From Neocallimastix sp. 'constans' (taxonomy: Eukaryota): a DNA stretch of 64,000 nt. The position numbers and the translations under genes are program-made. Shown piece by piece: positions 23,974 to 63,592 of this stretch. The notes beneath the pieces are model-generated. The model was not told the DNA's origin. It did no database searches and saw only the letters and a list, made by a program, of their open reading frames with translations. The stretch covers positions 558,001 to 622,000 of the forward strand of contig JBODTK010000014.1 in NCBI GenBank assembly GCA_050613775.1. The letters are read 5' to 3'. Every line of letters starts with the position of its first letter. Position 1 is the stretch's first letter.

Positions 23974-23976
23974 TTT

Positions 23977-24602: not shown

Positions 24603-24652
24603 CTTTTACAGTAAATTCTAAATTAAGATAATAATCAACATTTGTCAATTTT

Positions 24653-25164: not shown

Positions 25165-25168
25165 TTTT

Positions 25169-32008: not shown

Positions 32009-32070
32009 AAATATATTTTAAAATGTTACGGAACTAATAAATATTTAAAACTAGAATTAAATATTAAATA

Positions 32071-33262: not shown

Positions 33263-33268
33263 AAATAT

Positions 33269-33781: not shown

Positions 33782-33968
33782 AATGGTAGACTAGGGGTTG
33801 AGGGTTTAGAGATATTTAAAATCAAGCAGAGGGGAACAGGATTGCCCTACATTGATTTTAAAAAAAAATTCTTTTAAAACTCTTTTTTTAATATTTATTA
33901 TTTAATATTTTAAAATTATTTTTATTCCTACACATTTTTATTAAGAATTTTAGTATTGGCAATATCTT

Positions 33969-38400: not shown

Positions 38401-40252
38401 GGGTAGAAAAATGTCTTTTTTGATTACTACCCATATAATTTAACCTATCTGCTTTTTCAGCAATTTTAAAGGCTTTTGACAGAGAAATGTTATCAAATAA
38501 GATTAGACGTTTCCAGGCTTCAACGTTGTTTTCAATGGAGTCTGTGAAGTCTAAAACACTTATCTGACTTCTTTTCTTTTTGTTTAATTTTATATATAAA
38601 GTTTTATACTTAATATTACAATCTTTAATTCTTTCATTTCTCTTAATTCTGAGAGCACGTAGCTCTCTTAATAAATTATTTTGATCTTCCCTAATACCAT
38701 AAGTCTTCTATAGCTTTTACAATTCAATTAAGGGAAGGATAAGCCTTATTCTTTTTATCAATTTTCTTAGCTTCTTCTATCATCATCCTCATCTTTATCA
38801 TCAATATCCTTATAATTATCATCAACATCATCATCATAATCACAATCATCACTATCATTATCTTTATCATTATTATCCATTAATTCTTGGATGACCTTCC
38901 TGGTTTCACCAATTGAGATTAAAACACAGGCATATAATATAATCTTGGAGTCTTCAATATGTTCAAGCTTTATCCAAAGCTCTAAATCAGACTTCCAAGT
39001 TTTAACATCTAAATTTTCCTTGGATATTTTCTCAATTTCCTTAAGTTCTTTTTTTAAATCTTTAAAATTAATTGTACTCATTTTAAATACACACTTTAAA
39101 AAAAAATAAAAAAAAATTGTTAATTATTTAATTGTTATATTTATTATATATTTATTTATTTACAATTAAAATTATATATTTAAGTAATTTATATCTCTAG
39201 TGAGACGTTTCCTGATAGTGTATATTTAATTTTGCTATATACACCCGTGTAGCCCTAATTCTTCTTCTTCTTTTTCTTCTTCTTCTTCTTCGTCTTCCCC
39301 GATATTTCCACCAATTTTGGTAGACTCGAGGTTAGACTTAATTATTTAAAAATCAAGCAGTGGGGATGGGGATTACCCTTCTTTGATTTACAAATTTAAT
39401 AAAATTTTTTTTTATAAATTTTATTTATTATTTTATTAATATTTAATATTTTCTTGAAAATTACATATTTATATTTTAAAAATTCTTTGTGATATTTATA
39501 TTTTTTTTGTAAATTTAATTATAATTATTTGTTTATAATTTAAATAATTTTATAGAATTATTGAATTAATTTTATATCAATAATTCATTTTTGTTTTAAT
39601 TTTTATAAATATAATAATATAATATTTAAATATAATTTAATTAGAAATAATTATAAAATAAATATATAGAATATAATTTTTACTATTTTCTTTGATATTT
39701 TTAAGTTAAATAAAATGTTTTTAAAGATTAATATAATAAATTTAATAATCTTTAATTATTTTAAATAATACTTGTAATTAGTTTCAAAAATAAAATAAAA
39801 TTTTTATAATATTTAATTAATAATTTTAATAGTAAATTTGATAATATTTTAATAATAAATTTTCATAATTATTAATAATTTTTAATAATAATTTTTAATA
39901 ATAAATTTAATTAATAATTTTAATAATTTAATAATAATATTTAATAGTTGTAATAAATAAATTTTTATAATAATATTTAATTAATAATTTTAATAATTTA
40001 TAATATCTTAAAAGTATATAATTTTAACATTTATAATAGTATTTTAATATACACATATATTTAATAACATAACAATAAAGTAATTAATTAAAATTGATAT
40101 AAAATTATTTACAAGTTAAAATTAATTTATATCAAAATTAATTAATTTTTATAATTAGGTTTAGGTTATCAAGAATATAGGAAAGTACAATTTAGTAAAG
40201 AATTATTAATAATATTTTATACAAAAAAAGGTTATTAATTCATTCTTTACCA
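35440..40252 (-). mobile_element. 3'-truncated Gypsy family E copy (5' LTR 39318-40252, PBS, gag 38141-39081, protease region)
   Basis: Close paralogue of 53950-58378; ALIDSCS protease; frameshifts; interrupted by LTR J. Confidence 0.92.
35668..36739. mobile_element. Solo LTR family J inserted in family E pol
   Basis: TGTAAA...TTTACA with TSD TATTG; empty site visible in the paralogue at ~54186-54190. Confidence 0.93.
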
Positions 40253-40256
40253 TTAA

Positions 40257-43200
40257 TGATACGTTATTTTATTAATTTTTTTTTATTAATATTTTTAGTA
40301 TCAATATTTTTGTGAGTTTGCAAGATAGTATAAAATAAAATAGTATATTCTAATAAAGAAATATATAATTACTAAACACGTTATTTTAAAACAAAATATA
40401 AAAAATTATAATTTTTTTTTATATTATTATTTTATTTATTTTCATATATATTGTTATATTATTATTATTATTATTATTATTATAATATTCATTCTCATCT
40501 TTATCGTATAATTTTACTTCTGTAAAATATGGAATAACATTTTTTAAATGTATATTCCTATCTGCAATTTCACCAGTAATGGGGTCACATACAGTGACTG
40601 TATTTAATTCTTACTTAACAATCTTCAAAGGTCCAGTAAAGAAAGGGTCTAATTTCCGTCTATTAAATACTCTAATAAGAACTAAGTCGCCAGGTTTAAA
40701 ACTAGATCTCATCCTCTTAATTTGCTTTCGACGATCCTCCCAGAGTTTATTTGCAGTTTCTATATTATTCATTGCTTCCCTGATCCATTTGTCATGAGTG
40801 ATAAATTTTCTAAGCCAATATTCCTCTTCACTTTCCATTTCATTCCTTTTTTCTATATTTAAGGTAAGTTCAAATGGTTGTAAGTCTCGTCTCCCGTATA
40901 ATAATTCGAAGCTGCTAAATTTAGTAACTTCATTCTTTGCAGTGCGGATAGCCCATAAAGCACTATATAGAGTTTCGTCCCAAGTATCCACCTTTTCATC
41001 TAGTAACCGTAAGTATTTATTGATTTCTCTGTTCCGATTTTCAACTTCTCCATTAGTTGCAGGGTAGTAAGTAGTAGCATAGTGTACATAAACATCATGA
41101 AAGTCTAAGAACGCTTTTGTTTTATCTGAAATGAATTGTGGTCCATTATCCGTTATTAATATTTCAGGAATTCCATGCCTGGAAAATACCATTTTTAAAA
41201 ATTTAGTAATATCATCTGATTCTATTGTCTCTAGAGGTTCCGCCTCTACCCATTTAGTCATGTAATCTACTAATACAATTATATATTTATTACCATTTTT
41301 TGTAGGTGGTAAAGGACCAACTAAATCTAAACCCACTCTTGAAAAGGGATATCCAGGAGGAGTAGCTATACTTTCTACGTTCTTATTAAGAATTTGTGAT
41401 CTACATATTTGGCAACGATGACAACTTTTAATTATCATTTGAACATCCTTTTTCATAGATTTCCATTAATAATATCGTTTTAATCCATTATAAGTTTTAT
41501 AAATACCTTCATAGCCAATTTGATGTACTTCCTTAATTAGTTCCAGTTGTTTTCTTCTTTCTTTAATAACTTTCCTTATGTTTTCTCCTTGTTTATAATA
41601 TTCAATACCATCAATATTTATGATTCTTTTGTTAATGAATCCAATTTACAATATACTTACTAAACTAAATAATCTTGGTATTCGTGGTAAATGCCTTCAA
41701 TTCATTACTAATCTATACCTTACCTCGAAAGCTCGTGCAAACTTTAATGGTAAACTTTCAAAAGAATTTCCAATACACCGTGGTGTTCGCCAATGGTGTC
41801 CTCTCTCACCTATTTTATTCAATATATTTATCAATGATATTTTTGATAAATGTAAAAGTTATGGTGTGATTACTGAAAAGAAAAAGTGTTGTGGTGGATT
41901 ATTTGCTGATGATATTGTATTATTAGCTCCTACAAAATCTTCACTTAAAAACCTTTTGAATATTGCTCATGATTGGGGTATTAAAAATGAAATGACCTTT
42001 GGAATCAATAAATGCGCTACACTAGTTGTTAAACCAAAGAATTTTATACCTTCAAGAGATTATAAAAATCCTACATTTAGACTTGGTATGAACTATATAC
42101 CAAGCACTAATCAATATACATATCTTGGTATACCTTTTAATGAATCGTTGGATTTAAAACCTATTATTGCTAAGATGAACAGTAAAATTAATTATACAGT
42201 TAACTCTTTCTTTAGATTTTTAACCAATAGGAATGTTCCTTTCTACTTTAAAACTCGTATACTAGTTTCTTTTGTCCTTAGTTCAGTTCTTTATTATGCT
42301 CCCTTACTTGGTTCAAATAAAAAGAATAATGAAAAAGCTCAAACTGCTTTTAATCGAGGTTTGTATTGGAGTTTCGGGTTTAAAAATAAAACCTCCAATA
42401 CTTCAATTTACAATATGTCTAAGGAACTTTCTATACCTCCTATAGCTAGTTTTTGTGCTAAGGCGATGATTCGATGCTTTAAAAAGTGGAAAGATTCTTC
42501 TTGTATTATTTCTCATTTAGTCAAAAATATACCTACACTTTCTCACTATTCATGGACGAAAAAAGCACGGAGTTTAGCAGTACACAAGCACAATAATAAA
42601 CTTCCTGGAGAAATAAGGAGGTTTTACTGGGAAAATATTTATTATTCAAGCACTCCTGCAATCAGATCTACAAAATACAAGAAATTTAAATTTGGTTTTA
42701 AAAAATTTATTCATCGTCTATCACTAAAATATTCACAATTTTCTCTTGGATTTTTTTGGATTGGACAAATTAAATGTGGATTCAAATTTGATGTAAAAAT
42801 GTATGTTAAAAGTAATCTAGTATCAGAAAATTGCCCAACATACTGCCCTTGTTGTGGTGAGAGTAACAGCACACACTGGATACTTTTATGTCCTAAATTT
42901 GAAGAATTTAGGCAACATTTCATTCCCTTTGTTGATGAAATTTTTATGAATTTTTCTTTAATTGTTCATGAGAAATCATTGAACATTCCTGATGATAAAG
43001 AGGAAGATTTTGATGATAATATCAATTTTTACGTGCTGTGTCTCCTTCTTGGCGGAAATGCAGTATTTGAAATCTTAAAGATCGGCTCGGGGGAAAGAAA
43101 GCGATTTATTAATAATATTTTTCAATCACCTTCAAACGAGTCTTCTTTCCCGATTTCATATTTTGTGGGGCTTGCGGAATTCCTTACTAACGTTATGCCT

Positions 43201-43900
43201 ATTATGATTGGTGATTTTTACACCATGATCGATTTGTATAGTGTTAGACCTACCGTTGTCAAGAGCGTCGACGTCGTAACGATAAGGCAAAGAAGAAATT
43301 CTGATACAGATTCGAATGATAATTTTCATCCACATGGAGTTATCTTCGATGAATGGGAAGAGTTAGAGGCCGTTTCGTCCTCGAATCTCATAACGTAGTT
43401 TTTTAATATTAATATAAAAAAAAAAATTTCATGTATTTAAACTTCATGTATTTTTTAAAAAAATATTATTAAATAAAGTTTATTCCTAGTCTAAAAAAAA
43501 AAAAAAAATTTTGTTAATGAAATCATTCATAAATTTATTAATATTATCATCATAACTGTTAATGTTGAATATTATTAATATTACTATTATTAACTAATAT
43601 ATTTACTGTTTCTTTATTAATGTTTAATTCTTTTATAAGGCATTCTGGATAATACATCGGCTATTACATTTTTCCTCCCCTCTTCAAATTGGACGTTTAC
43701 ATTTAAAATACTTAGTTCAGTGACCCATTTGAGGTGTCTACTGTTGGAAGGTTCTCTTTTAGCGAAGATACTAACCAATGGCTTATGATCAGTAAAAACT
43801 ACTGTGGGAAATTTACTACAAGAAAAATATGGCTTAAATTTTCTTACACAATGAAAAACTGCTTTACCTTCTAAATCAGTGACACTATAGTTACATTCCG
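40257..43900 (-). mobile_element. Gypsy remnant (family A-like): RNase H 43522-43900, integrase 40500-41626, short 3' LTR from 40257; split by a LINE
   Basis: VGLDLVGP, TDNGPQF, NGEVENRN, TGPLKI; manual translation TDLEGKAV...FTDHKPL...ADVLSR beyond the LINE. Confidence 0.88.
41640..43508 (+). mobile_element. 5'-truncated non-LTR retrotransposon (LINE): RT C-terminal half plus CCHC finger, stop at 43398, poly(A) tail
   Basis: GVRQxCPLSPILFN, LFADD, YTYLG, CPCC...H....C; A16 tail; 13-bp TSD TTTTGTTAATGAA (41627-39 and 43509-21). Confidence 0.95.
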
Positions 43901-45970
43901 ATGAAGATAAAGAACGACTTGAAGATCATATATCATATCGTTCATGTTAAAAATGTACTTTCGTTATTAATAAAAAATGGTCTATATGTTAAGAAAGAAA
44001 AATGCGAATTCCATGTTAAAGAAACAACTTTCCTTGGATTTACAATTTCGGTTAACGACATCACAATGGATCAAAATAAAGTAAAATCGATAATTGAATG
44101 GCCAACACCTAAGAATATTAAGGAATTACAAAGTTTCCTTGGACTTTATAATTTCTATCGAAGATTTATAAAAAATTTTGCCGAAATTATGGAACCTCTC
44201 CGCAAGCTTATGAAGAAAAATAATAAATATATCTGGAATGATCAAGCCGAAACTGCTTTCAAAAATCTCAAAAAATCTTTTTTATCCAATGAAATCCTTA
44301 TCTTTCAAATATATAACAAAGAATTTATTGTCGAAACAGATGCAAGCAACTATGCTTTTGGCTGTGTCTTATCTCAAATCTCAGAAAATGATTAGCTACT
44401 TCATCCTATTGCGTTCTACTCACGGTCTCTTAACTCGAATGAAAAGAACTATACAATTTATGATAAGGAACTCCTTGCCGTTATAACAGCCTTTGACGTA
44501 TGGAGGCACCATTTAGAAGGTGCGAAGTATCCAATTCAAGTTATAACGGACCACAAAAACTTGTTGTACTTAAAGAAACCACAACATTTAAATCAACGAC
44601 AAATACGATGGAGTCTCTTCTTATCAAAATTTGATTTTCGTATTTCCTACAGACCTGGAACTAAAAGTGGAAAGCCAGATTCCTTATCAAGAAGGCTGGA
44701 TTATCAAGAAAATGATTCTCCAATAACATGTACCATTCCCAATGACGACCCAATATGCTGTACAGCTTATGAAAAAATTGATAAATTAATCGATTTACAA
44801 AAACAAGACAAATTCTGCAAAGAAACCATGAGCAAACTAAAATCTAAATCAAAAGAAATCAAAAGCTCATTGTTTAGTCTTATTCGTGGTGTTTTACACT
44901 TTCAAGGACGAATAATAGTGCCATTTCTTCTTATAACAAAGATTTTACAATCTTTTCATGACTCCCCTTTAGGCGGTCACCAAGGAATCCATAATACTAT
45001 GGATAAATTAAAACGTTATTATTGGTGGCCTAACATGAGGAAGGATGTTGAAAACTACATCCTATCTTGTGAAACTTGCGGAAGATGCAAAACCAGAAGA
45101 CACAATCCTTATGGTAAACTTCTTCCTCTCCCGGTTCCTAAAAAACTATGGGAGATTATTGGTGTTGACTTTATTGTCTCATTGCCAAGTTCACAAGATT
45201 GCTCGTGTATCATGGTTGTTTCGGATCACCTCACTAAAATGATCCATTTGGTTCCTTGTTCGGATGTTCCTTAAGCAGATCTTACTGCTAAGCTTCTTCT
45301 TTTCAACGTTTTTAGATATCACGGGTTCCCTAAATCGATCGTTTCCGATCATAGTAGTCAATTTTCTTTGGAATTTTGGACTTCTCTTTGTTCTGCTTTG
45401 CATATTCAGCCTAATCTCGCCACTGCTCACCACCAACAGTCTAATGGCCAAATTGAGCAATATCTTCGCTGCTACTGCTCTTCAGCACAAAATGAATGGT
45501 GTTATTACCTGCCTTTATGTGAATTTTCCTATAATAATTCACTCCATCAGTCTATTGGTGTCTCTCCCTTCTATGCCAATTTTGGATTTAATCCAAATAG
45601 TATTATTAATTCCCCTCCAATTCTTTTGAAGGATAATGCTTCGGTTCTTACAAGAGACTGGTCGGCCCATTTCCAATCACTTCAAGCTCATCTGTTCAAA
45701 GCTAAAGAAGATTTCAAAAAGTATAATGACCTCAAGAAACAACATAGTCCAAATTTTAATATTAACGATAAAGTGCGGCTAAAAAGATATTATTTCACCA
45801 ATGAGCCGGCGAAGAAGCTAGCTTCACAATACTTAGGTCCATTCAGAATAACGGAAAAATTAAAATGCATGAATTACTGGTTGGAACTTCCAAGTAATTT
45901 ACACATGCATCCAATATTCCACATCTCTCAATTGGAACCCTACTTTGAAAGAAATCAAGATTTAAAATAA
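43901..45970 (+). pseudogene. pol: 5'-truncated Tf1-like Gypsy V pol (RT end, RNase H, integrase)
   Basis: ORFs 43901-44395, 44561-45274 and 45368-45970; close to Y and Z pol; in-frame stops. Confidence 0.93.
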
Positions 45971-46013
45971 TTATAATTTAGAAATAATTATAAAATTATA
46001 TTAAAAATCATAA

Positions 46014-46572
46014 TGTAACAAATCAAATGAAAAAAGAATAATTAATGTTTAAAAAATTAATTAAAATAAAACAATGTCATGTATAATTGACATTGTTTAA
46101 ATAAAACAAATGTAAATTGAAGTTTTCCGATTGGAAAATATCGGTTTTTATTCAATTAACATATATCAATTTTATTAATTGATCATTAAATTTTTTAGGT
46201 TTTTCTCCCAAATCTTTTCCTAAAAGTTATTCATTAAGATTTGGAACTTTACTATAAATAATTCTTGATTTTCTTTATTTTGAAAATCAAGAGTTATTAT
46301 TATAAGAATATAATTATAATAATAAACAAAATAAAATTTTAATTATTTTAAAATAACAAAAATCTTAATAAAAATTATTCTTAAATAAAAAAATTTTTTT
46401 TTAATAAAAGTTTTATTTTAATTATTCATTTAATCAAATTTCTTATAAACTCTCTCTCCCTTTTTAAATTTTAGATAAGTATTTTTTTTATGTCTTTTTA
46501 TTTCTCGATTAATATTAGTATTAATTGTAGAAAAGAATTAAATTTAATTAAGTTTAAATTTAATTCTTTACA
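46014..46572 (+). mobile_element. 3' LTR of Gypsy V
   Basis: TGTAAC...TTTACA downstream of the integrase; carries the structure cassette. Confidence 0.8.
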
Positions 46573-46577
46573 ATTTC

Positions 46578-47477
46578 TGTAAGAATCTATAATTATTTTT
46601 AAATAAATTAATTATATTTTCTTAGTTAAGTTATAACTATAACTTTATTTAATATTTATTCATTTAAATATTATTAATAATTTATTTAACACAATATTAA
46701 ATTTTCATTAATTTAATACAACAAAATTTATTTAATTATTATTTATACATTTATGAATAATTATAGTTTATTTAATTATACATTTAATTATTAAATTTAT
46801 TAGTCTTAGTTTATTTATTTAATTAAATTTTAAACAAATATATTATGTAATATAATATGCATTTAATAATGTATTCTGTATTTTGATTATTAATATCTTA
46901 TTATGTTATTTTCCTTATTTGTAAATTTATGATTTTATGATCGAAATATTTTTTATTATTTTATTCTTTTATTTTCGATCAATTACATTAGATTAGCGAA
47001 TCGGTCAATTAGGGTTTTTCCCAATCACTTTTTAAAAGTAATTGGTTTTACCTAATTGATACGATGATCGATATGGATAGAATATCGATCAAAAATCTTA
47101 TCTAGGTTTTTCTCTCTAATCTTTTCCTAGATAAGAGATTTGTTAAAATTAGAAAGCACTTTTTTAATTTAACTTTATTTTTCAAAAAAGTATAAATAAA
47201 GCTCTTGAATTCTCTTTGAGAAATCAAGAGTTATTATTATAACAATTATAATATAGTAATAACATTAATAAATATTTTATATTTCTATTTTAATAAAGTA
47301 AGTTTTAATAAAACAAATTTAAAAATAAAATAAAATAATCTTTTCTCTTTGACAATTCTGTGTTATTAGTTTATTATAATTAGTTATAATAAACTTTTTC
47401 TTATAGAAGATAAGTATATTTATCTTTTTTGTTTTCTCAATTTAATAATAATTATTATTTAGTTATTATTAAGTTGT
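46578..47477 (+). mobile_element. Family B LTR with its 3' end replaced by LTR C
   Basis: TGTAAGAATCTAT start; near-identical to the rc of 23017-23973. Confidence 0.88.
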
Positions 47478-48726
47478 TGTAAAGTTTTTATAGGTGGTAA
47501 GGTTATTGTAAAATATAATTGATTGTTTAGGTAAGATTATAGTTAAATCTTATCGAATGGTAGGTTAGATTCTTACTATATCTTTCCTAGTTTGGGTTAA
47601 ATTGGTCAGGTCAAGATGTTCTTATTAATTATAACAATTTAATTAAATTTAAATAATAAATATCACACACAGAGTTTTATAATTAAGATTTCAATATTTA
47701 AGATTTATGTTTTATTAGAACTTTATTTAATATATATTTTAATAATAAATTTAACTAAGATTAATATAAAGAATTATTATTGTTATAATTAATTCATTAA
47801 CTAAGTTAATAGGTTAAAAGTTATTAAGTTAATAATCTTACAAAGAATTCAAAATATGGAATTTCAAATCCTTTTTATATACTAAACTAAAATAATAATT
47901 AACAATATAATTAATACATTTTAATCTTAATATATTCATACATGTATATAAACTATATAAATATAATAATAAAATAATATTGATAAGAATCTTTTAATAC
48001 AATAACTATATAATTATTCATAAAACTATTTAATAAAAAAACTAATTTATAATGAGAAAATATAAAATAAAATAAAATATTAAAACTAATTAAAAATTCT
48101 CTTTCGGAAATCTTTAGAATGATAAAGAATTCCTTAGAATCTTTTAGAAAATAATTGAATAAAATATATAATAATAAAATATATAAAACTTTTAAACTTA
48201 TTTAAAATATTATAAAATTATTACTAATAACTAATTCTGTATTTTTAATTAATAATAAAAATTAATAATTTAATTTCCAAGTTAAGAGATTTTATCTAAT
48301 ATAGAATTCTTAATTAATAATTTAAGGTCTTAAATAATTAAATTATTTTTTACACTCAATATCTTTAAAGTCCAATATCTCGTTATCTAGTTGTCCAATA
48401 AGGTTGATTTTAACATATGTTGTAGTTCTCGTCAGTAGCTTTCAAATGAATATAATTTTAGTGGGAATATCAATATAATATTTCCATTATTTGTCGTGTT
48501 GTCGTTGTTTTTCTTCAAGTTATTTTTATTAAATTCTTAAGGGTTAAAATAAATTAAATTATCTTTAATAAATGAGTCCAAACCCTTTGGTTTCTAATTA
48601 ATTAATGTTTCTAATATTTATTTTTATAATTAAAATTGAATTAAAATACTTTTTGTCAATAAATAAATTAAATTTCAATTGATCTAATAGTGAATTTTAA
48701 CCTTGAATCCACTAGTATTCGTGACA
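47478..48726 (-). mobile_element. Solo LTR family C with non-matching flanks
   Basis: rc of 32071-33262; flanks GTTGT/AACTA; followed by 49 bp of an inverted B-type U3 end (48727-48775). Confidence 0.9.
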
Positions 48727-48781
48727 AACTAAGAAATATTAATTATTTATTAATAAATAATTATTATTTCTTACAATTTCT

Positions 48782-49550
48782 TGGTACAGTCTTGAAGAGT
48801 TTTAATAATAAAATAATATATTCTAATAATTAAAGAAAATTTTATATTCTATTTTATTATTCTAATTTATTATTCTAACTTAAAAATCTAAATTTTAAAT
48901 AATTTAACTAAACTAAAATAACTAAAAATAATTTCAAACCTAATCTAAATAATCTAATTATTCAACAATAATTAGTAACTCTAAACATTAAACACTAAAA
49001 TTTTAAAACACTTAAAAACAACACTCAAATTATTTTTAATTTAACTTTATTTAAAATAAACTATTTTATTTTTATTATTTAATCTATTCTAATTTTTTTA
49101 TTTAAACTATTCTAATTTAATTATTTAACTATTCTAATCTAATTATTTAAACTAATTTTATTTCAATATAACTATTTAAATTTATTATTTAACTCTAAAA
49201 TAACAAAAGAATAATATAATAATAAAGTTGTAGTTGTAAGAAAAAGAGAGAGAACTAAAGTATTGTACTACTTTGTTCTTTTTATACATTTAGAATAGTT
49301 ATTTGATTGGATTAGAATAAAATTTTAATAATAAAAATTTAATAATAAAAATTTAATAATAAAAATTTAATAATAAAATTTAATAAGTATTATAATAAAA
49401 ATAATTAATATAATACATGTATCGAATTTGCTATAACTAATTTTATAATTATTTTAATATTTTAATATTTATCATTTAGTATAATTAATATTACTAATAT
49501 TTTTTATTAATAATTATTTCTAATTCTAAATATCTAATAGTTCCGTAACA
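48782..49550. mobile_element. Solo LTR family D
   Basis: TGGTAC...GTAACA with TSD TTCT. Confidence 0.85.
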
Positions 49551-49554
49551 TTCT

Positions 49555-50527
49555 TGTTATGGCTCGAGGAATTAAAAAAAATATATATATATAATATTAA
49601 AACATTAAATAAGTAGAAAATTTACTACACACAATAATTTTTATTTATTTATTTTATTTTTATTTATTTTATTTATATTTATTTATTTTTATTTTTATTT
49701 TTATTTATTTTATTTTTTTATTTCTTTTATTTATATTTATTTATTTTTATTTTTAATTTTTTTTATTTATTATTTCTATTTATTCTCTTTTTTTCTCCCC
49801 CTAGAAAGGGATTCCCAGGTAGTCAATTTATATCTTTTTGAAGATATAAACGAAGCAAAGCCTCTGGAAGTAGTTGAAGAGATGGAAAAACAATAGATTT
49901 TTAAATCTTATTGATTATTTCCTTATTGTAATAAATAGAAATTTTATTATTTTCTAATATTCAAATTAACTAAAATAAATCTATAATAAAAAGATGCATT
50001 ATAGATAAGAATTAAACAAAAAAAAGAAGCAGCATTACAATAAAATTGAATACTTTAACTTAATTTTGATGTTAATTTAATATGTAATCTTATATATTAA
50101 TTTGAATGACATAATAGAAAATAAAATACATTTATTAATATATGAAAAATCCTTTACAATTTTAAATACAGAAAATTTTATTTTATTTATTTCTTTCATT
50201 TCAATTATTTCTTAATTCGAAAGACAGAAATATTGATAAAGTTATTTAAGTTATTTATATACAGCAATTATTCCTTATTTAGAAGAATAATACTAAAAGT
50301 AATTAGTACTATGTTGTTGATAGACTCTCATAAATTTAATTTACCTTTAAAAGGAATGAACATGAATTTAAATTAAATTTTATGTATAAACTTAAATTAT
50401 TTAGATCAAATAATATAGTAAAATTATTAATGTAAAGAATGCATAAATTTATTAATATTTTAAAAATTACATTGACTATATTAAGAGATTTTTAATAAGA
50501 ATCAATTTATTACTTCATTCTTTATCA
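49555..50527. mobile_element. Solo LTR family G
   Basis: TGTTA...TATCA with TSD TTCT. Confidence 0.75.
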
Positions 50528-51553
50528 TTCTTGATAGACTCGGGGTTAGTACGTCTATCTTTTAAAATCAACCAGGGGGGACGGGGATTACCCTGCTTTG
50601 ATTTTAAATTATATAAAAAAAATTTGTTTTAATAAAATTTATTTATTATTTATTAATATAAAAAAATTTATTTCGAATACAAATATTTAATTTTTAAGAA
50701 ATTTTTACAATATTTATATTTTTTTGTAAATTTAAGGTATAATTATTTGTTTATAATTTAAGTAATTTTATAGAATTATTGAATTAATTTTATATCAATA
50801 ATTCATTTTTGTTTTAATTTTTATAAATATAATAATGTAATATTTAAATATAATTTAATTAGAAATAATTATAAAGTAAATATATAGAAAATAGCTTCTA
50901 TTATTTTCTTTGATATTTAAGTTAAATAATATGTTTTTAAATATTAATATAATAAATTTAATAATCTTTAATTATTTTAAATAATACTTGTAATAAAATA
51001 AAATTTTTATAATATTTAATTAATAATTTTAATAGTAAATTTGATAATATTTAATTAATAAAATTTATAATAATTAATAATTTTTAATGATAAATCTTTA
51101 TAATAATATATAATACTTTACAATAAATAAATTGTTTAGTAATATTTAATTAATAATTTTAATAATTTTATATTATTAATAGTTTATAATAATTTTTATA
51201 ATAATATTTAATTAATAATTTTAAAAATTTGATAATAATTTTTATAATAATATTTAATTAATAGTTTTAATAATTTAAAATATCTTAAAAGTATATAATT
51301 TTTAATATTTATAATAATATTTTAATATATACATATGTTTAATAATATACAGCAAATTAATTAATTAAGATTGATTTAATATTATTTACAAGTTAAGTTT
51401 AATTTATATTAAAACAAATTATTTTTACAATGAGGTTTAGGTTATCAAGAACATAGGAAAGTACAATTTAGTAAAGAATCATTAATAATATTTTATAATA
51501 AAATAAAGGTTATTAATTCATTCTTTACCATGATGCCCCCTCTAAAACTCAAG

Positions 51554-54500
51554 CTACATCGAAGCTGAGTTATACTTGACTATATTCTTCAAATGAACAT
51601 TCTTATTCATTTGAATTCCAGAATTTGGATCAGCCAAGGTAACCGTATTAAATTGTTTTTTTATAACTTTAAGAGGACCAACAAAATAAGATTCTAGTTT
51701 AGTTCTTGAAAAATTACAAACTAAAACTAAATCACCTTCCCTAATTCTTTTTCCTTCATTCAAACTATTCTTTTCCTCTCTCCTAGCAGTCCAATATTTA
51801 TTTGCATTTTTCACATTTTTAGCTGCTTCTAAAGTCTATCGGTAATGATTAATAAATTTTTCTAACAACACTTCATCCGATGACTTATTAATATCCTTGG
51901 TAGGTCTAGCAGCAATATCAAAAGGCTGCTGATCTTTTCTACTATAAACTAACTCAAAACTTTAATGTTTTGTGACCTTATTTTTGGTAGTTCTAAGAGC
52001 CCATAAGGCGGATGGTAAAACTTCATCCCAATCCTTATTCTTAGAACCCAACAACCTCAATAACTTTCCGATCTCTTTATTACGGTTTTCCGTAAGTCCA
52101 TTACTTTCTGGATGATATGTGGAAATAAACTTCACATATACATCGTAGAGATCTAAAAATATTTTCGTCATGTCCGAGGTGAACTGAACACCATTGTCAG
52201 TTGTTATTACCTGTGGAACACCATGACGAGCAAACGCATTAATTAAGAACTTAATCACATCCTGTGATGTTATATTTTCCGTGGGTTCTGCTTCAACCCA
52301 TTTGGTGAGGTAATCCACCACAACCATAATATATTGATTATTATTTTTAGTTTTAATCAAAGGTCCAATAATATCTAAACCCAAATGTATAAAAGGACCT
52401 TCTACCTTAGTTGAAATATTTTCTGTAGGTTCTGGATGTGGTTGTGACCTATTCAACTGACACTTGTCACAACTTTGCACCACTCTTTTAATATCCATCA
52501 CCATATTATTCCAATAAAAACTTTTACGAAGCCTTTGATAAGTCTTATAATATCCCTCATGACCTATCTTATGGGCTTCTAAAATAAGTTTTACTCTTTC
52601 CGTTTGATTAGTAATTAATTTACGATAGTCATTACCATCAACAAAGTAATCTTCACCATCTATCGTAACAAATTTTTCATTTATAAAGTCTTTAATAGTT
52701 TTAGAAAGCAACTCTTCTTCTTCCTTTGAAGTTAACTTAGTTGCCAATACCACAGAATCATCTCTTTTATTCATCCTAGATAATGAATCGACTAACACAT
52801 TTTTCTTACCCATTTGATATTGAATTTCAACACCAAGGGTACTAACAGTTAAGCACCACCTTGCTTGCCTAGCATTATTAGGTTTTTTATTTTTAAAGAA
52901 ACTGATTAAAGGTTTATGATCTGTTATTACTACTGTTTTATTAGGATTTCCTAATATATAAGATTTCAACTTAGTAATACAATAAATTAATGCAGCTCCT
53001 TCCAAGTCAGTAATGCCATAATTTTTCTCGGTTTTACTTAAACTTCTACTTATATAATGAACTGGATGTTCCTTTTTGGTTTCTAAATCTTCTTGGAGTA
53101 ATACTCCTCCAATACCTTCATAGGAAGCATCCGTTCTAATTATAAACCTTTGATTAAAACTTGGATATTTTAAAATTGGAGCATTTATTAATTTTTCTTT
53201 TAACAGATCAAAACTTTGTTGATGTTCAGTATTCCATTTATATTTAACATTCTTTCTTAATAATTTACATAAAGGAGCAGAGATTTGAGCATATTTATCA
53301 ATAAAGTTTCTATAATATCCTACTGCTCCAAGAAAAGATTGTAATTCATGAACATCAACAGGTGCTACCCACTCCTTGATAGCCTTAATTTTGCTATACT
53401 GGGGACTTAGACCTTTCACTGATGCCTTATGATCTAAGACTTCTACTTCAGTCTGCATAAAGGCACATTTTTCAATATTGATTTTCAATTTGTGTTTGCG
53501 AAATTCTTCCAACAATTGTCTAATATGACTTATGTGTTCTTCTATACTCTTAGAGTATATCAATATGTCATCTATAAAGTTAAAAACAAACTTTCCTATA
53601 AATGGGAAAAGAATCCTATTCATTTCCCTTTGAAATGTAGCTGGGGCTCCGGTTAAACCAAAAGGCATAACCTTGAATTGGTAGTTACCAAATTTTGTTG
53701 TGAAGGTGGTAATTTCTACACTTTCCTCATCCATCAAAATTTGATGATAACCAGAGTAAAGATCCATTGTTGTAAAAATCTGTGCCCCATCTAAACTATC
53801 AAATATCTCATCAATGTAAGGTAATGAATAAGAATCTTTAACTGTTAAATCATTAGCATCAATACATAATCGCCATTTACCGTTCTTCTTCGGTACTAAC
53901 ACTATTGGCGATGACCATTCGGAACAAGAAGGTTCAATTAATTTCTTATTAATTAATTTAATTAATTCCTCCTTAAGTATATCCTACTTAAATTTTACTA
54001 ATCTATAGCCCCTTTGCTTAACTGGTTTCGCACCAGGAATTAAATTAATCTTATGTGGAGGAAGATCAGAAGGTGTTAATTCTTCTGAAGAAGTAGCAAC
54101 TATTTCTAAGTTCTCCTTCAGAATTTTAATTATTTCATTTTTATATTTTTCATTTAAAGTATTTAGGAAAATTTCATTATGAATATATTGCTCTGGGGAT
54201 AATCCTTCAATTTTCTTTAAATCATTCTTTTTGGAATCCTCCTCCAAAGCTTTAATCATACACAACAATTTTTCTTCATCTTCATAATCATTATTAATAG
54301 GTGTAATAACGTCAATTACTCTTTCAGGAGTAATTTGACACAAACTATATAAAATGGGGTGGATAAACAAATTATAATCAATTTGGGTTTTTAAGTTAAT
54401 TAGAATATCGTAAAGAGGATCCTCCTTTTCTACTATTCTACAATTAACCATTAACACAAGATTATTAATCTTTACTGGCACCTGAATGATATAACTTTCC

Positions 54501-55594
54501 GAGTAATCATCATTCTGAGTCGCCAACCTAATTCTGCCACGACTAATATCAATAGGTTCATATTCGGACGGAAGCTTATCTAAAAATTGCTGAGTAATTA
54601 TACTTAAATTACTACATGAATCAATTAAAGCCTTCCCCGAAACACCTTCAACTGTAACATCCACCATGACAATATCCTCTTCACATGGTTCGTTACATTT
54701 ACTTTTATAAGTGCGGTCTATATTATTAACGACCACAGTCGTAGCTGACACATTATCCAACACCCTAGAGATATTAGATTGGTCCCTATCCAATTTAATA
54801 CCCTGTGACATCTTATATCTTAATTTTGGAGCAGCATCCAATAACTGTCCAAAAGTAATATTGCAATGGGCAGAATTTAAATCTTTAAGAATATCATATT
54901 CTTCTTCCCCCGATTGCATCTTAATTTTCCTAGATACCCTAGAACTTTTATTTTCTTTTTGAGTATCTTTATCTTTACTAATTATCACCTTTGTTAATTC
55001 AATTACTTTATTATTCTTCTTCACAAAATTTTTATTATTATCATTATTTTCTTTCATTAAATTTTTATTCTTTTTTTTATCATTATTTACATTATTTTTA
55101 ATAACTTCATCATTCATTAATGAATTATTATTAATATTATCATTACTATTATCATTACTATTATTATTACTATAATTAGTATTACAATTACTACCTCTTT
55201 CATTATAACGAATTTGTCTTTCAATCTCTTTTTCTTTTTCAATTCGTGGTTGAGCTATAATAGATGGATTAATTTGTTTTACAATTTTATTACTTATATT
55301 ATTTTCCTTTATTTCTCGTTCTTTCTGTTTTCGTAATGTAGGAGTTATTATAGGTTTAGGATTCTCCTTCAACGACTTATGAATCCTTTTCTCCGCACTA
55401 CCTTCATCATTATTAACATCATAAATTTTACGTTTAGATGCTCCTACTAAATAATCAACTTTCTTTTTATTAACCAACCTTTTATTAACAGGAGTTTCTT
55501 CAATATTAGAAAGACTAGAATTTTTAATTTCTTTTTGATATTTAATTGAAGCTGCTTTATTAAGTATGGGAGAACTTCTTATCCCATTATTCAA
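51554..55594 (-). pseudogene. pol: Family E pol (PR-RT-RH-IN) with a nonsense codon at ~53984 and 3' disruptions
   Basis: ALIDSCS, FIDD, RTDAS, LGLDIIGP, TDNG, NGLTENRN, VGPLKV. Confidence 0.95.
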
Positions 55595-56518
55595 TTTAAA
55601 CGTTTATTGTTTCTAATTTCCTTCCTATTTTTCTCAACAATTGCTCTCAACTTTGGGCAATTGTTTTGATAATGACCTGGTTCTTTAAAGAAATAACAAG
55701 CCTTTATTGTTAAATTTCTCATTTTTCTTGTTAATTTCTCTATGTCATTATCTTCTTTAGGTTTAATATTAACTTTTTGTTCTAATTTATTTTTAATAGG
55801 AGGATGAAAATTAACTCTATTATTAAATGAAGATGTATTTGCAGAAGGTGAAGGGGTAGAAGGATGTCTTCTTTGATTACTACCCATATAATTTAACCTA
55901 TCTGCTTTTTCAGCAATTTTAAAGACTTTTGACAGAGAAATGTTATCAAATAAGGTTAGACGTTTCCAGGCTTCAACATTGTTTTCAATGGAGTCTGTGT
56001 AGTCTAAAACACTTATCTGACTTCTTTTCTTTTTGTTTAATTTTAAATATAAAGTTTTATACTTAATATTAAAATCTTTAATTCTTTCATTTCTCTTAAT
56101 TCTGAGAGCACGTAACTCTCTTAATAAATTATTTTGATCCTCCCTAATGCCATAAAATTCTTCTATAGCTTTTACAATTCGATTAAGGGAAGGATAAGCC
56201 TTATTCTTTTTATCAATTTCTTTATCTTCTTCATTATCATCATCCTCATCTTCATCATCAATATCCTTATAATTATCATCATCATCATCACTATCATCAT
56301 CTTTATCATTATCATCCATTAATTCCTGGATGACTTTCCTGGTTTCACCAATTGAGGTTAAAACACAGACATAAAATATAATCTTGGAGTCTTCAACATG
56401 TTCAAGCTTTATCCAAAGCTCTAAATCAGACTTCCAAGTTAACATCTAAATTTTCCTTGGATATTATCTCAATATCCTTAAGTTCTTTTTTTAAATCTTT
56501 AAAATTAATTGTACTCAT
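55591..56518 (-). pseudogene. gag: Family E gag with acidic tract and degenerate CCHC; frameshift near the N-terminus
   Basis: ORF 55591-56445; start MSTINFK as in paralogue 38767-39081. Confidence 0.88.
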
Positions 56519-57550
56519 TTTAAAAAAAAAATACTTTTAAAAAAAAAAAAATTTTATTTTATTAATTTATTAATTGCTATATTTATTATTTATTTTTTTA
56601 TTTACAAGTTAAAATTAATATTTAAGTAATTTATATCTCTAGTGAGACGTTTCCTGATAGTGTATATTTTAATTTGCTATATACACCCGTACTCCCCCTC
56701 CTGGACACTAGAATAAATATAAATTAATAAACTAGTTGGAGTGTTCACTATTCAAGCTATTAACCCCTTTCGTTTATCTTAAATAAAAATATATATATAC
56801 AATTATTTACAAGAAAAATTATTAATAACAATTAAAAATATTTAAAAACACAAAAATTTTTTTTTTTATTTATTTATTTATTTGTTATCGGTTATTATTA
56901 CAAGATTCACAACTACAATTGCAATTGTTAAGTTTATATAATTACAACTTTAAAAAAAAACAAATAAACTTAATTAAAAACAAGGCAATTTAACAAACCT
57001 AATACAACTTGAAAAACCACTATCTATTACAATTGCCAACAACGCAGAGGGACCTTAGTATTTCGGTATACTAAGTGAATTTAACCCGAGTCAGGTATGT
57101 GGACACCCAAACCGTGTTGAACGTATAATGAGTGGCTTATAAGTTAATTTCTGCTTCCCAACAGCATTTAACTTATATCTGGCCGGTGGCCAATATGTTT
57201 CAGTATTAACTCCTTCCACAAGTACCCAATTAAACCACTCGCAATTATAACAAAAATTTTAACTGCTATCTTACGCAGTAACCCAGTATATAGTTTTATT
57301 TAGAGAACGCGAAGACCAAATAAAACTGATGTTAATTTTTGTAACAACAACCACAACCACAACCGATAACAAAAAAAATAATTATGATGATAATGAAAAT
57401 TTAAAAAAATTACTTTTTTTTTTTTTTTTTATTTTTTATTTTTTTTTTTTTAATAATTTAATTTAATTCGATTAATTTTAATTTAAAAAAATTATTCTAA
57501 TGGTTCCAGTAGCTTCTTCTTCTTTTTCTTCTTCTTCTTTTTCTTCTTCT

Positions 57551-57568
57551 TCCCCGATATCTCCACCA
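57551..57568 (-). promoter_or_regulatory. Primer-binding site complementary to a tRNA-Ala-like 3' end
   Basis: TGGTGGAGATATCGGGGA, 4 nt after the 5' LTR; its complement ends ...TCTCCACCA as in eukaryotic tRNA-Ala. Confidence 0.85.
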
Positions 57569-58382
57569 ATTTTGGTAGACTCAGGGTTAGTACGTCTAGC
57601 TTTAAAATCAAGCAGGGGGGACGGGGATTACCCTGCTTTGATTTTAAATTATATAAAAAAAATTTTTGTTTTAATAAAATTTATTTATTATTTATTAGTA
57701 TAAAAATTTATTTCGAATATATATATTTAATTTTTAAGAAATTTTTACAATATTTATATTTTTTGTAAATTTAAGGTATAATTAATTGTTTATAATCTAA
57801 AGAATTGTATAGAATTATTGAATTAATTTTATATCAATAGTTCATTTTTGTTTTAATTTTTTTAAATATAATAATGTAATATTTAAATATAATTTAATTA
57901 GAAATAATTATAAAATAAATATATAGAAAATAGCTTTTACTACTTTCTTTGATATTTTAAGTTAGATAAAATGTTTTTAAATATTAATATAATAAATTTA
58001 ATAATCTTTAATTATTTTAAATAATACTTGTAATAAAATAAAATTTTTATAATATTTAATTAATAATTTTAACAATTTTATAATAATTTTTATAATAATA
58101 TTTAATTAATAGTTTTAATAATTTAAAATATCTTAAAAGTATATAATTTTTAATATTTACAATAATATTTTGATATATACATATGTTTAATAATATACAA
58201 CAAATTAATTAATTAAGATTGATTTAATATTATTTACAAGCTAAGTTTAATTTATAATAAAAAAAATTATTTTTACAATGAGGTTTAGGTTATCAAGAAT
58301 ATAGGAAAGTACAATTTAGTAAAGAATTATTAATAATATTTTATAATAAAATAAAGGTTATTAACTCATTCTTTACCACCTT

Positions 58383-59022
58383 TGATACGATATATTTTTA
58401 AAATATTCGTATTTACAATAGTTTTTGGGCACTACACTGGGGAATTATATTAAATTATATATTCTAATAATAATATTATTTATTTTATTTAGTTATTTAA
58501 AAATTTTTATTTTATGATAATTGTTTTGTAATATCTTAATTATTTTATTTTATTTTTTTTTTATCATACTAATTAACTATTAATAATTATAAATCAATTA
58601 TAATATTCTACAATTAATTACTTAAACAACTAATTTTATAAAAACTAATAACTAAACTACTATCCTAACTAATTAAAACATTATTTTTATATTAAATCAA
58701 CTATTACTAATTAACATATATCAATACTTTTTTTAACAAGTTTTTTTTTTTTTTTTTTTATAATAATATTTTTATATATTTTTTCATAATTATTATCTCT
58801 ATATTAAATCATAATTATTATATTTTGTATAAACATTAATATAGAGGTCTATATTATAATTAAATTTTATACTATAATAATATTATTTTATATGATTTAT
58901 ATTAAATATAATTCACTATTTTTATATAATTAATTTTATAATATATATTACAAACTTTATATAATTAATATAATTTAATAATAATTTTAAAATATCATTA
59001 TTTTTCTTTTCATCTTGTATCA
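58383..59022. mobile_element. Solo LTR family H
   Basis: TGATAC...GTATCA with TSD CCTT. Confidence 0.85.
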
Positions 59023-59034
59023 CCTTAGCAATTA

Positions 59035-59857
59035 TGGTACAGAATTGAAGATTATTTTAAAAAAAATAATATATTCTAATAATTAAAAATTTAATTTTTC
59101 ACTAATAAAAATAATCATTATTTTAACAGTTCTAATATAAATAACTTAAATAAATATTTTAATAAATTTTATCTTTAAATTATAGCTAAATTACCTAACA
59201 AACTAAATATTTAAAACTAATCAAAATTATTTTTATCCTTAACTATAATAAAACACAAAAACAAAATTAATCAATCTGATTAGAGAATAATTTAATTTTA
59301 TTTACTTATTTAATTATTTATTTATACTAATATTAAATATTTACTAATTCATTCTCGAAAAATTAAAAGAAAAATATAAAAATAAAGTTAAAAGAAGAGG
59401 AAGAACTAAAGTATTGTTTTACTTTGTTCTTTTTATATCTTTAAAACAATTATTTGATTGGAGTAAAAATAAAAATATAAAATATAATAAAAATATAATA
59501 ACAAAAATATAATAATTTTATAATAATAAAATATAATAAAATATAATTTTAATATAATATTTAATATAAGAAAATAATAAAAATATAATAAAGTATAATA
59601 AAAATTTTATAATAAAAATATAAAATAATAATAAATATAATTTTAATTATTTATAATAAAATATTTAATTGTTTTACTATTACAATATTAAATAAATACA
59701 ATTAATACATTATTTTAAATAATTTAGTTATTTATACATTATTTAATTTCATTATTATATATTTTAATACTTTAATATTTTATTCTTATTTATTTTTTAA
59801 TTAATCTTAATAGTTTAATTTTTTATTTATTTTTTATTTATTATTTGTATCGTAACA
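59035..59857. mobile_element. Solo LTR, D-related
   Basis: TGGTACAG...CGTAACA with TSD ATTA; shares the AGAACTAAAGTA...TACTTTGTTCT hairpin with family D. Confidence 0.85.
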
Positions 59858-61752
59858 ATTAATGGTATGGTTCATATAGTTTTAAGAATATAATAATAAT
59901 TAACACAAATAATAAAATTACAATAAAAATAATCTTGTTTTAAAATCAATATTTATTTATTTAAATTTATAAAAGAAAAATAATAATATAATTATTTATT
60001 TAATAAAAGTAAGTTAGTGATTATATTTTATTTCACTAAAAATTACATATATTTATATTTTTTTATCAAATTAAATTTTGTAAAGCCTAACTATTTCTTA
60101 ATAAACTAATTACTAATTATTTTTATAAATAAAGCGTTTAAATTGAAATTGAATTATTATTTTAGTTAATAATATTATTGTTATAAATAGTAGTTATATA
60201 TTATTGAATTATTAATTATTTAATAATAGTTTAATATTAATATATATAAAATAAAAATAAAGAGATTATACAGAATATTTTATTGTGGTTTAGTAAAATT
60301 TAGTAATTAAAAATAAATTTAAATTTATAACGAAAATTTTAATAACCAATTAAATAGATTTGATTATTTTCAATATAACATATTATTACAAAAGAAATAT
60401 AATATTAATATATTAAGTGGGCAAGGACAATATTCTTGTCTAAAGATTTTTAATACATTATTATGGAATCGGATCGATAATTCAAAAAGGAATTATAAGT
60501 TAATTGGTGATTTATTAACTTAAGATTTCTATTTAGTAATATTTGAAGAATATTGGAAAGTTCCAATTATATAGAATCGAATAATCTATAAGGTTAGAAT
60601 AATTTATATTATTATAGCACAATTAGTATTATTTGTTCATTCTGTATTAATTATGATGAAGAATGAAATTATAAAATCAAATATTATAATAAAATTTATT
60701 TAAAAATTAAATTTTAACCTTAAATAAGATTAAATTATCTGAACCTTAAATAATTATGCTATAATAAAATTAAAATTAAAAAAAATCAATCATAATCTTC
60801 TAGAAAAATTGTGTTTCCAGAAAAAAAAAATATATTGCAATAACTTTAAAAGATAACTTTTAATAATCTTGTTTTTATCAACGATATAATTTCTTTATTT
60901 TCTTTATTGTTATTCTTTTATTTCTTTATCATTCCTTTATTTCTATAATAAAATATAATTATTCATTTATTTCTTTTAATATAATATATTTATTCTTTTA
61001 TTTCTTTTAATATAAAAAAATATTTATTCTTTTATTTCTTTTCTTACTATAATTATAAATACATTAAATTCGTGTAAAAATATAAATACTTGTAAATATT
61101 TCTTTTAATTATTCTTCGTTGTTATTAAATTATTAAATTAATAAAATAATAAATAATAACCAAAATAAATAAATAAAATAAATTAGATAATTATTTAATA
61201 AAAATTAATAAAGATAAATAATAATTATTTTACATTATAATTAAATAAAAAAATAAAATGAAACAGTTTAATAAAATTATAGATTTTAGCTATAATTTAG
61301 AATAGTTTAGTAATATTATAATAGAATAATAGTAAAAATAATTTATTATTTAAAATTATTATAATAAATAATTAATAATTAATAAAAACTTATTTTATAT
61401 AAAATTATTTATAATAATTTTATATATATTAACTTTATTTATAATAAAGTTAATAATAAAAATCTAATAGTAAAAATTTAATAAAATATGAAGATTGATA
61501 ATTCATTTAGTGTATAATTAAATAATTATTAATTTAGTTAATAAAAATAATTTATAATTATTAGAATAGTTATTAAACTAGGAAATAATAATAAATAATA
61601 ATAAATAATAATAAAAAGTAATAAATAATAACGAATAATAAGTAATAATAAATAATCATAGATAATAATTAATAAATAATAAGGTATAAAATATTTTTGA
61701 TAAGCAATTACCACTTTTAGGATATTTCTAAATTAAGGTAATTGTTACATTT

Positions 61753-62719
61753 TGTAAGAATCTATAATTATTTTTAACAAAATAATTATATTTTCTTAGT
61801 AAAGTTATAATAATATAACTTTATTTAGATCATATTACTTTCGTACACTTAATTATAATTAATAATTTATTTAAAATTATATTAAATATTTATTTAATTT
61901 AGTATTAGAAAATTATTTAGATAAATAGTTTTTATACATTTAAATAATAATAATAATAATTTATTTAATCATTCATTTAAATATTAAATTTATTAGTTTA
62001 GTAATTTAGTTAAACTATGTAACTAAAATTACTCTATATTGTATAATGTATTCTGTATTTTATAATATATCTTATATTTTGTTTAATACATAATTTAATA
62101 TTATTTATATATTGTTTTCCTTATATGTAAACTCATATTTATATGATCGAAATATCTTTTATTCTTATTCTTTTATTTTCGATTATTAGATTAGATTAGA
62201 TTAGGAATCGGTTAATTAGTGTTTTTTCCAATTTCTTCTTAAAAGTAATTGGTTTTACCTAATTGATACGATGATCGATATGGATAGAATATCGATCAAA
62301 AGCTTATCTAGGTTTTTCTATCTAATCTTTTCCTAGATAAGAGAATTGTTAAGATTAGAACCCCTTTTGATTTTAACCTTATTTTGACAAAAAAGTATAA
62401 ATAAGGCTCTTGAGTTCACTTTGAGAAATCAAGAGTTATTATTATAACAATTATAATATAATAATAATAATAATAATAGTTTTAACATTTAAAGTTTCTA
62501 ATAATTAATAAAACAAATTATTTTAATAAAACAAATTTTATAATTAAAACTTTTCTTTATCAATTTTAGTGTTTCGTCTATTATAATTCGTTATAATAAA
62601 CTCGATAATTAGAAAGAACCATAGGTAAGTATGATTCTTTTTAAGCCTTTAATATTAGCACTTAGAGCTAATATTAATGATTAATAATTTAATTATAATT
62701 TTTTAATTAAATTATTACA
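61753..62719 (+). mobile_element. Solo LTR family B
   Basis: TGTAAGAATCTAT...ATTACA with TSD CATTT. Confidence 0.9.
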
Positions 62720-62733
62720 CATTTTATCAATTA

Positions 62734-63592
62734 TGTAAGAAATAATAATTATTTACTAATAAATAATTATTATTTCTTAGTCTTTATAATTATTGATAAT
62801 AATTATAAATTTATTTAAATTATAACAAAATTTTATTTAATTAATTATTAATTATTCATTTATAAATAATTATAATTTATTATATATTTAATTATTAAAT
62901 TTATTAGTTTTAGTTTATTTATTTAATTAAATTGTAAACAAACACATTATGTATTCTATTATGTATTTAATAATGTATTCTGTATTTTATTTAATATTTT
63001 ATTTTCCTTTTTTGTAAATTTATGAATTTATGATCGAAATATTTTTTTATTATTTTATTCTTTTATTTTCGATCATTAGATTAGATTAGGAATCGGTTAA
63101 TTAGTGTTTTTTCCAATTTCTTCTTAAAAGTAATTGGTTTTACCTAATTGATACGATGATCGATATGGATAGAATATCGATCAAAAATCTTATCTAGGTT
63201 TTTCTGTCTAATCTTTTCCTAGATAAGAAATTTATTAAGGTTAGAAAAACCTTTTTTATTTAACCTTATTTTAACAAAAAAAATATAAATAAGGCTCTTG
63301 AGTTCTCTTTAAGAAATCAAGAGTTATTATTATAAAAATATAGTTATAATAGTAACGATTTTATATTTTAAACTTTAACAAATTAATAAATTATTTTATT
63401 CAAAAAACATACTTTAAAAATTAAATTTATACAAATCTTTCTTCCTTCTTATTTTTCGTGTTATTATTATAATTAATTTTATAATAAACTCCACTAATAT
63501 TTAGGTAAAACTTTTTTTTATTTTCTCAACTTAATGAATTAATCGTTAAGTTGAAGTTAATAATCATATTAAGTGATAGTACTTAGTATGAT
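62734..63592 (+). mobile_element. B-related LTR, interrupted near its end by another B-related LTR starting at 63593 that runs off the window
   Basis: TGTAAGAAATAAT start and full structure cassette. Confidence 0.8.

Follow-up and report, generated by a model that had tools for sequence, protein, structure and literature searches.

Stacked long terminal repeats of several Ty3/gypsy families in a Neocallimastix contig suggest serial insertion at a Pol III-anchored target

Results

Long terminal repeats in end-to-end stacks

In a stretch of 64,000 nucleotides from Neocallimastix sp. 'constans' (contig JBODTK010000014.1, positions 558,001 to 622,000), long terminal repeats (LTRs) of different retroelement families stand end to end, only a few bases apart. 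The whole stretch is called the window here, the families carry letters, and the focal stack of LTRs lies at 45969-58378 (Table 1). The window has a G+C content of 10-36% in 2-kb bins and is mostly mobile DNA.

The focal order is V/ATTTC/B..B'/ATTTCT/D/TTCT/G/TTCT/E, with target-site duplications of 4 and 5 bp. A preliminary description of this DNA had noticed the stack, and its order, its two lengths of duplication and its at least four families at the same bases are all real, while several details are corrected here. ATTTC stands on both sides of the unit 46578-48775. That unit, previously labelled B as far as 48775, is a composite of a plus-strand B, a minus-strand C and a short minus-strand stub of B'. 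The flanks of its C element, GTTGT and AACTA, do not match. This C is likely a recombinant of two C copies, and its flanks would be unmatched because two C insertions recombined. In the simplest history of the unit, one C would have inserted near the right end of B and another near the right end of B', with recombination following.

The V LTR had been started at 46014 but probably begins further upstream. No polypurine tract (PPT) precedes that position, and high-depth contigs of related sequencing runs match from 45969 and differ upstream of it. At the other end of V, a 60-letter short-read contig stops exactly at 46572. Four short-read runs placed on 45900-47290 have these families at great depth and list neither loose ends nor bridging contigs there, which is neutral on the junctions. 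The E element, whose primer-binding site (PBS) we take to be that of tRNA-Ala, has unmatched outer flanks, TTCT on the left and CCTT on the right.

Table 1. Features of the focal stack, the other stacks and the B-box elements (window coordinates; slashes separate LTRs from the words between them)
Feature	Position	Strand	Remarks
V LTR	45969-46572	+	5' end probably truncated and adjoining a Ty3/gypsy pol end (43883-45970); CA at its right terminus, 46572
Target word ATTTC	46573-46577	+	5 bp, again at 48776-48780
B-family LTR	46578-47477	+	Without its last ~47 bp; 94% identical to 23062-23973(-), break point aligned
Family C element, TG..CA	47478-48726	-	97.9% identical to 32071-33221, 93% to 2026-3206
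B' LTR terminus stub	48727-48775	-	49 bp; 96% identical to 62734-62781; C is 49 bp inside its end
D-family solo LTR	48782-49550		Duplication TTCT/TTCT (4 bp); both termini multi-copy
G solo LTR	49555-50527		Duplication TTCT/TTCT (4 bp); right end E-like
E element	50532-58378	-	3' LTR 50532-51530, PPT, pol 51965-53983, PBS, 5' LTR 57573-58378
Stack A/TTAT/F/GTTAT/H	259-3228		C (2027-3228, duplication ATTCT) 52 bp inside H
Stack U/TTCTG/B2/TTCTG/B3/TTC/A	17850-21727		Ends in a 12-bp B remnant beside copia-like RNase H coding DNA
tRNA gene	22929-22999	-	Anticodon loop 3 nt short; A- and B-box matches; cloverleaf-like fold; damaged
Stack B/TTT/H2/ATTTT/O/TTTT/K/TTTT/L	23015-26222		Five members; begins 15 nt upstream of the tRNA gene
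Second strict B-box	31945-31955	-	tRNA 3' half-like by eye; D LTR end (32024) 68 nt upstream
D(-) 47-bp stub, C, second C start, D(+), E-like LTR start	32024-33784		C 32071-33262 (duplication AAATA), second C from 33269, D(+) to 33781
Stack right of E: CCTT/I/CCTT-AGCA-ATTA/D'/ATTAA ... TTT/B6/TTTT-ATCA-ATTA/B'	58379-62734

Junctions and chance

All 18 junctions listed in the preliminary description are where it put them. Seventeen read CA-(2-6 nt)-TG, but the one at 25588 reads TA, and at 33262/33269 one C meets another C within a D LTR. The partner ends at 40257, 59863 and 61749 are weakly supported. Missed earlier were 1969/1975 and 24647/24653, as well as 59022/59035 and 62721/62734 with gaps of 12 bp (the end at 62721 is placed by homology and used so in the counts). 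There are thus 20 gaps of 2-6 bp plus the two of 12 bp, and the latter point to a narrow window of sub-sites rather than strict abutment. Candidate junctions near 3947/3952, 27099/27103 and 29762/29767, whose partners are not confirmed, were excluded.

Bare CA..TG pairs at 2-6 nt spacing are not enriched in the window, with 522 observed versus 495 expected. The window has 2440 CA and 2195 TG sites. LTR-terminus-like words at this spacing, picked after the junctions were known, occur 30 times versus 12.7 expected (P 2.6e-5). Junctions with multi-copy terminal words at both ends number 6 versus 0.07 (P about 1e-10). A secondary peak at 30-nt spacing was rejected, as it is mostly duplicated sequence (8 of its 10 matches are four pairs).

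The outward and inward ends of LTRs differ in their neighbours. Among the outward ends of families other than C, 38 of 50 have another end within 7 bp, or 32 of 47 without the three weak ends. None of the six ends turned towards the PBS or PPT of their own element has one (Fisher P 6e-4, or 2e-3 against 32/47).

A repeated word stands on both sides of B2, O, K, D, G and I. The words differ between stacks (TTAT, TTCT, TTTT, ACAA, TTAA, CCTT and ATTA), and the stack members occur in both orientations. The duplications are symmetric, so the insertion order is not readable from them. Flanks are unmatched across E, the focal C and L; therefore, flank exchange took place. Four stack ends can be traced to non-LTR DNA. 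Two of them face B-boxes and two (21727 and ~45969) are breaks in retroelement coding DNA.

A tRNA gene beside one stack

Ty3-like targeting had been dismissed earlier for want of tRNA genes. It is true that no tRNA gene flanks most stacks, yet the only tRNA-like gene of the window is 15 nt from the B LTR end at 23015, which heads a five-LTR stack with the word TTT(T). In a narrow Rfam scan this gene scores 28.6 bits for RF00005 (gathering 29, E 0.0011), and it tops a relaxed ARAGORN search with 97.0, the next score being 89.6. The chance of an LTR end falling in the published 13-33 nt window of a tRNA is about 0.01. Homology between the 23015 end and the terminus of another B copy is of modest significance (alignment score 66; mean 32 and maximum 69 in 200 shuffles).

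Upstream of each of the two strict B-boxes in the window stands an outward LTR end, at the similar distances of 64 nt for the tRNA gene and 68 nt for the element at 31955. B-box-like words near 28105 and 30345 were rejected as anchors; the conserved C is missing from them, and no LTR end is traced upstream.

The tRNA gene has no T-run terminator directly downstream. Both B-box elements, 22245-22999(-) and 31462-32007(-), continue for 400-500 bp as non-coding DNA that is relatively GC-rich, followed by (AAT)n or poly(A). They may be tRNA-derived short interspersed elements, and the window contains no further copy of either.

Family C

Family C inserts inside other LTRs, 52 (H), 47 (D), 49 (B') and an estimated 52 bp (B) from their ends. 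The same C end points to the near host end in all four hosts, and the start of a fifth C lies directly against one of these C copies. In the focal stack, the two offsets derived from C agree in direction. With its TG..CA ends and 5-bp duplications, C is LTR-like and does not show the structure of non-LTR (L1-like) elements.

Because the first LTR stands 15 bp from the gene and C 47-52 bp inside it, C would lie about 62-67 bp upstream from the mature tRNA, just beyond the yeast TFIIIB footprint. TFIIIB covers -15 to -32 in yeast (10.1101/2021.07.27.453949) and -40 to +5 on 5S (PMC5391098). One C only is near a B-box, and that B-box element is not a recognised tRNA.

Two clades and their integrases

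The elements have the features of Ty3/gypsy. Their LTRs are TG..CA with short terminal inverted repeats and 4-5 bp duplications, and the Pfam order is protease, reverse transcriptase (RT), RNase H and integrase in W (6282-8969) and RT, RNase H and integrase in U, V and E. A Pfam scan of 19 open reading frames (ORFs) gives 11 Ty3/gypsy gag or pol pieces, one RT-only ORF and seven without a match.

Two clades are distinct. U, V and W have TGTAA-type ends and pol identities of 60-71% to each other, and the B-type LTRs resemble theirs and have 5-bp duplications. E, X and A have TGATA/TGGTA-type ends, and E and X are 55% identical in pol. Between the clades the pol identity is 25-40%, mostly 27-36%. 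The solo LTRs D, G, I, O and K, with 4-bp duplications, go with the second clade by their TGATA/TGGTA-type terminal words alone.

In all six elements read (U, V, W, E, X and A), the integrase stops shortly after the SH3 fold. That of U ends seven residues beyond the position matching 1447 of the 1547 residues of Ty3 Gag-Pol. The chromodomain family of chromoviruses (Skipper-1 type) matches none of the 19 ORFs in Pfam. None is listed for the ten closest U relatives, several of them partial, whereas relatives at ~45% identity carry one. The best solved-structure match for both clades is Ty3, 7q5b.

Among named relatives, the E pol is closest to JGI gene models labelled Orpsp1_1, presumably the gut fungus Orpinomyces, with identities up to 73%. 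Some of the sequencing runs that contain parts of this DNA are animal feces and gut metagenomes. Taken together, these matches make an anaerobic gut fungus the probable host. In a scan of prokaryote genomes, a 4.2-kb contig of a bacterial metagenome-assembled genome (L026) encodes an integrase 66% identical to that of U, with about 100 bases beyond the match, and is probably a mis-binned fungal contig. Three scans of viral contigs found no relatives, and the B terminal word, searched against metagenomes, has 25 matches, all of them by chance.

Other mobile DNA in the window

U-, V- and B-type LTRs (18229-19326, 46253-47395 and 62101-63355) have a common core with differing ends, and the core is about 10 times as deep as the ends in related runs, which suggests a large recombining LTR superfamily. 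Element N (26521-27103) has ACAA on its left and the inverted word TTGT on its right, suggesting an inversion between two copies. At 25593-26334 and 29795-29930, an L-type terminus joins the same D-like position in opposite reading directions. The A-family LTRs (289-950 and 20513-21147) contain an internal tandem array of ~54 bp. About four bases separate the LTR from the PBS or PPT in E and A (39314-39317, 57569-57572, 51531-51534 and 255-258), more than the two bases of Ty3.

Other kinds of elements may also be present. An RT-only ORF followed by an A-run (41599-43430) sits within a minus-strand Ty3/gypsy pol (40614-43898) and is likely a long interspersed element. At 28049-30397, inverted repeats of ~90 bp (86% alike) surround a 303-aa ORF without a Pfam match and LTR pieces, possibly a DNA transposon. 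At 21728-21960 are an RNase H end, a purine tract and an LTR start, into which the stack 17850-21727 breaks; from a motif, we take this RNase H to be copia-like.

Discussion

That several families used one target site in series, the view of the preliminary description, is supported here. That description had ascribed the re-use to docking on a protein bound at LTR ends, and this part is not favoured. We instead read the stacks, with a probability of about 0.7, as Pol III-anchored serial insertion, in which several Ty3/gypsy LTR families insert at the same few bases. Four observations favour an anchor outside the LTRs, namely the inner ends free of neighbours, the stack that ends 15 nt from the tRNA gene, the similar distance at the second strict B-box, and the offset and orientation of C. 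The 12-bp gaps, the members in both orientations and the unmatched flanks also fit.

In the mechanism proposed, the families would be aimed at a fixed RNA polymerase III (Pol III) anchor, either a tRNA gene or a tRNA-derived element. Each new copy would land about 15 bp before the gene and displace the older copies outward. The target would be renewed after each insertion because the internal promoter stays intact. C would be aimed at the upstream edge of TFIIIB and hence insert into the LTR that happens to be closest to the gene. Recombination among LTR copies would leave solo LTRs, swap flanks and part the stacks from their tRNA gene. Most stacks would then be without a tRNA because the gene is at one end only, the full-length members move that end kilobases off, and the flanks are exchanged. 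As a refinement, the terminal CA of an LTR may rebuild the start-site motif and so tighten the 2-6 bp spacing. The focal anchor, judged from the orientation of C, may have lain to the right of E and been exchanged away later, which is the weakest step.

Several observations weigh against Pol III-anchored insertion. About eight stacks yield between them one tRNA gene and one unrecognised B-box element, and neither end of the focal stack has a tRNA gene within the window. Default ARAGORN and a whole-window Rfam scan call no tRNA in the 64 kb, the gene at 22929-22999 falling just under both cut-offs. The element at 31955 has no A-box match and no tRNA call in two Rfam scans and is weak as an anchor. 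No C copy of the window is beside a recognised tRNA gene. Certain ends lie at a distance from every anchor, among them B' at 63593, L in D-like DNA and, within copia-like coding DNA, the B remnant at 21727. At least two separate stacks (18685 and 49551) share the word TTCT, unpredicted by a pure anchor model. The vestigial chromodomain that follows SH3 in Ty3 is absent from the integrases found. The 63 LTR ends were annotated by eye after the junctions had been seen, and the inner/outer contrast, drawn from six inner ends only, is not significant (P 0.07-0.14) if the partners are restricted to multi-copy ends.

The alternatives differ in what they take as the cue. An integrated LTR end could itself be one if a bound host or element protein tethers intasomes there, with an offset of 2-6 bp outside or, for C, ~50 bp inside. 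The outward ends mostly abut another end, most stacks including the focal one show no Pol III anchor, and the C offset is fixed relative to four unrelated LTRs, as such docking would have it. But the PBS- and PPT-facing ends have the same kind of termini and are left unused. The tRNA gene at 15 nt would need to be there by chance or to mark an initial event of its own, a single protein would need to recognise the dissimilar termini of clades only 27-36% identical in pol, and the two 12-bp gaps fit poorly. We consider docking unlikely. A cross-family and Pol III-independent variant, in which stacks, once seeded at a tRNA or without any seed, renew themselves via a factor at outward LTR termini that attracts intasomes of unrelated Ty3/gypsy clades without a chromodomain, C being placed ~50 bp inward from this mark, is equally doubtful. 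LTR-end docking appears undescribed, and no tRNA targeting in anaerobic fungi was found, in a literature search that had most subscription journals outside its coverage.

The cue could also be the sequence alone, if integrases favour CA-(T-rich 4-5 nt)-TG and every insertion recreates it. The target words are T-rich, TTCT is found in separate stacks, and a YR step and a CA motif are over-represented at Ty3 sites (PMC6673722). However, the words change from stack to stack, the many CA and TG sites of the window are not enriched at the spacing, and the unused inner ends, the C offsets and the tRNA distance are left unexplained, making such a preference very unlikely as the cause. Almost as hard to sustain is that the stacks involve no independent integrations and arose by end-joining of cDNA or by recombination (concatemers, unequal exchange or segmental duplication), which would yield shared LTRs of one family, not different families with a word repeated on both sides, and which the varying neighbours among stacks also oppose. 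Recombination scars are nonetheless common in the window, and one spacer is TTAA, the word of a two-LTR circle junction. LTR tandems in Drosophila have been ascribed to recombination (10.1101/158386). An assembly artefact joining collapsed repeats end to end is scarcely credible, as matching duplications around single-copy LTRs and exact termini would not be expected from mis-joins. No listed short-read contig spans 45900-47290, but no more than 0.52 of the words occur in the short-read runs, which may come from other strains.

If Pol III-anchored insertion is true, an early-diverging fungal lineage rich in repeats has Pol III targeting as well, and no report of this was found in the literature searched. 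Such targeting would also be common to two distant Ty3/gypsy clades, both without the module with which Ty3 grips Brf1, and therefore another contact must aim them. C would be an LTR element with a TRE5-like distance and a strict orientation, a combination absent from the available part of a review table (PMC5911963). The stacks would record the order of insertions, and a natural site-specific integrase could be a tool in gut fungi.

Among the known systems, the 13-33 bp distance of the Pol III start-site class (Ty3, DGLT-A, Tj1 and Tca8 type) is found here at one tRNA gene and, within the window, not for the focal stack. DGLT-A, a Ty3/gypsy element of Dictyostelium discoideum, inserts 13-33 bp (mean 15) upstream of the mature tRNA in either orientation, and its integrase has a short extension without the chromodomain that its relatives bear (PMC5006619, PMC5911963). 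As far as these accounts describe it, the likeness covers the 15 nt, the two orientations, and the U, V and W integrases, which stop after SH3 where relatives of 45% identity have a chromodomain. Unlike DGLT-A, the present stacks involve two distant clades, 4- and 5-bp duplications at common sites and five or more members, in a gut fungus.

Ty3 of Saccharomyces cerevisiae inserts about 15 bp upstream of tRNAs (PMC5006619), with a ttCAan start motif at its sites (PMC6673722), and is targeted via an SH3 loop and a vestigial chromodomain that bind Brf1 (10.1101/2021.07.27.453949). The narrow Pol III start-site window and the 5-bp duplication are shared, whereas the U integrase is without the Brf1-binding vestigial chromodomain module.

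C resembles a different group. TRE5-A is found 44-54 bp and NLTR-B of Polysphondylium pallidum 39-64 bp upstream of tRNAs (PMC5006619, PMC5911963), and the Dictyostelium TREs form tandems by repeated targeting of one tRNA gene, with a strict orientation for TRE5-A (PMC5391098). C would share their kind of distance and has a fixed orientation to the near end of its host LTR. Those are non-LTR elements, whereas C, known here from its ends, has LTR-like TG..CA ends and 5-bp duplications.

The double insertions in Drosophila (McGurk and Barbash) are tandems with a copy of the target site between them, as here, but are of P and non-LTR elements in single families (10.1101/158386), while several LTR families are involved here. 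Nested insertions in plants prefer 3' UTRs and avoid LTRs (PMC6911290). The basic mechanism of serial insertion at a renewed tRNA target is already known. Most likely new here are the host lineage, the two clades without the Ty3 aiming module and an LTR-type family with the TRE5-like geometry.

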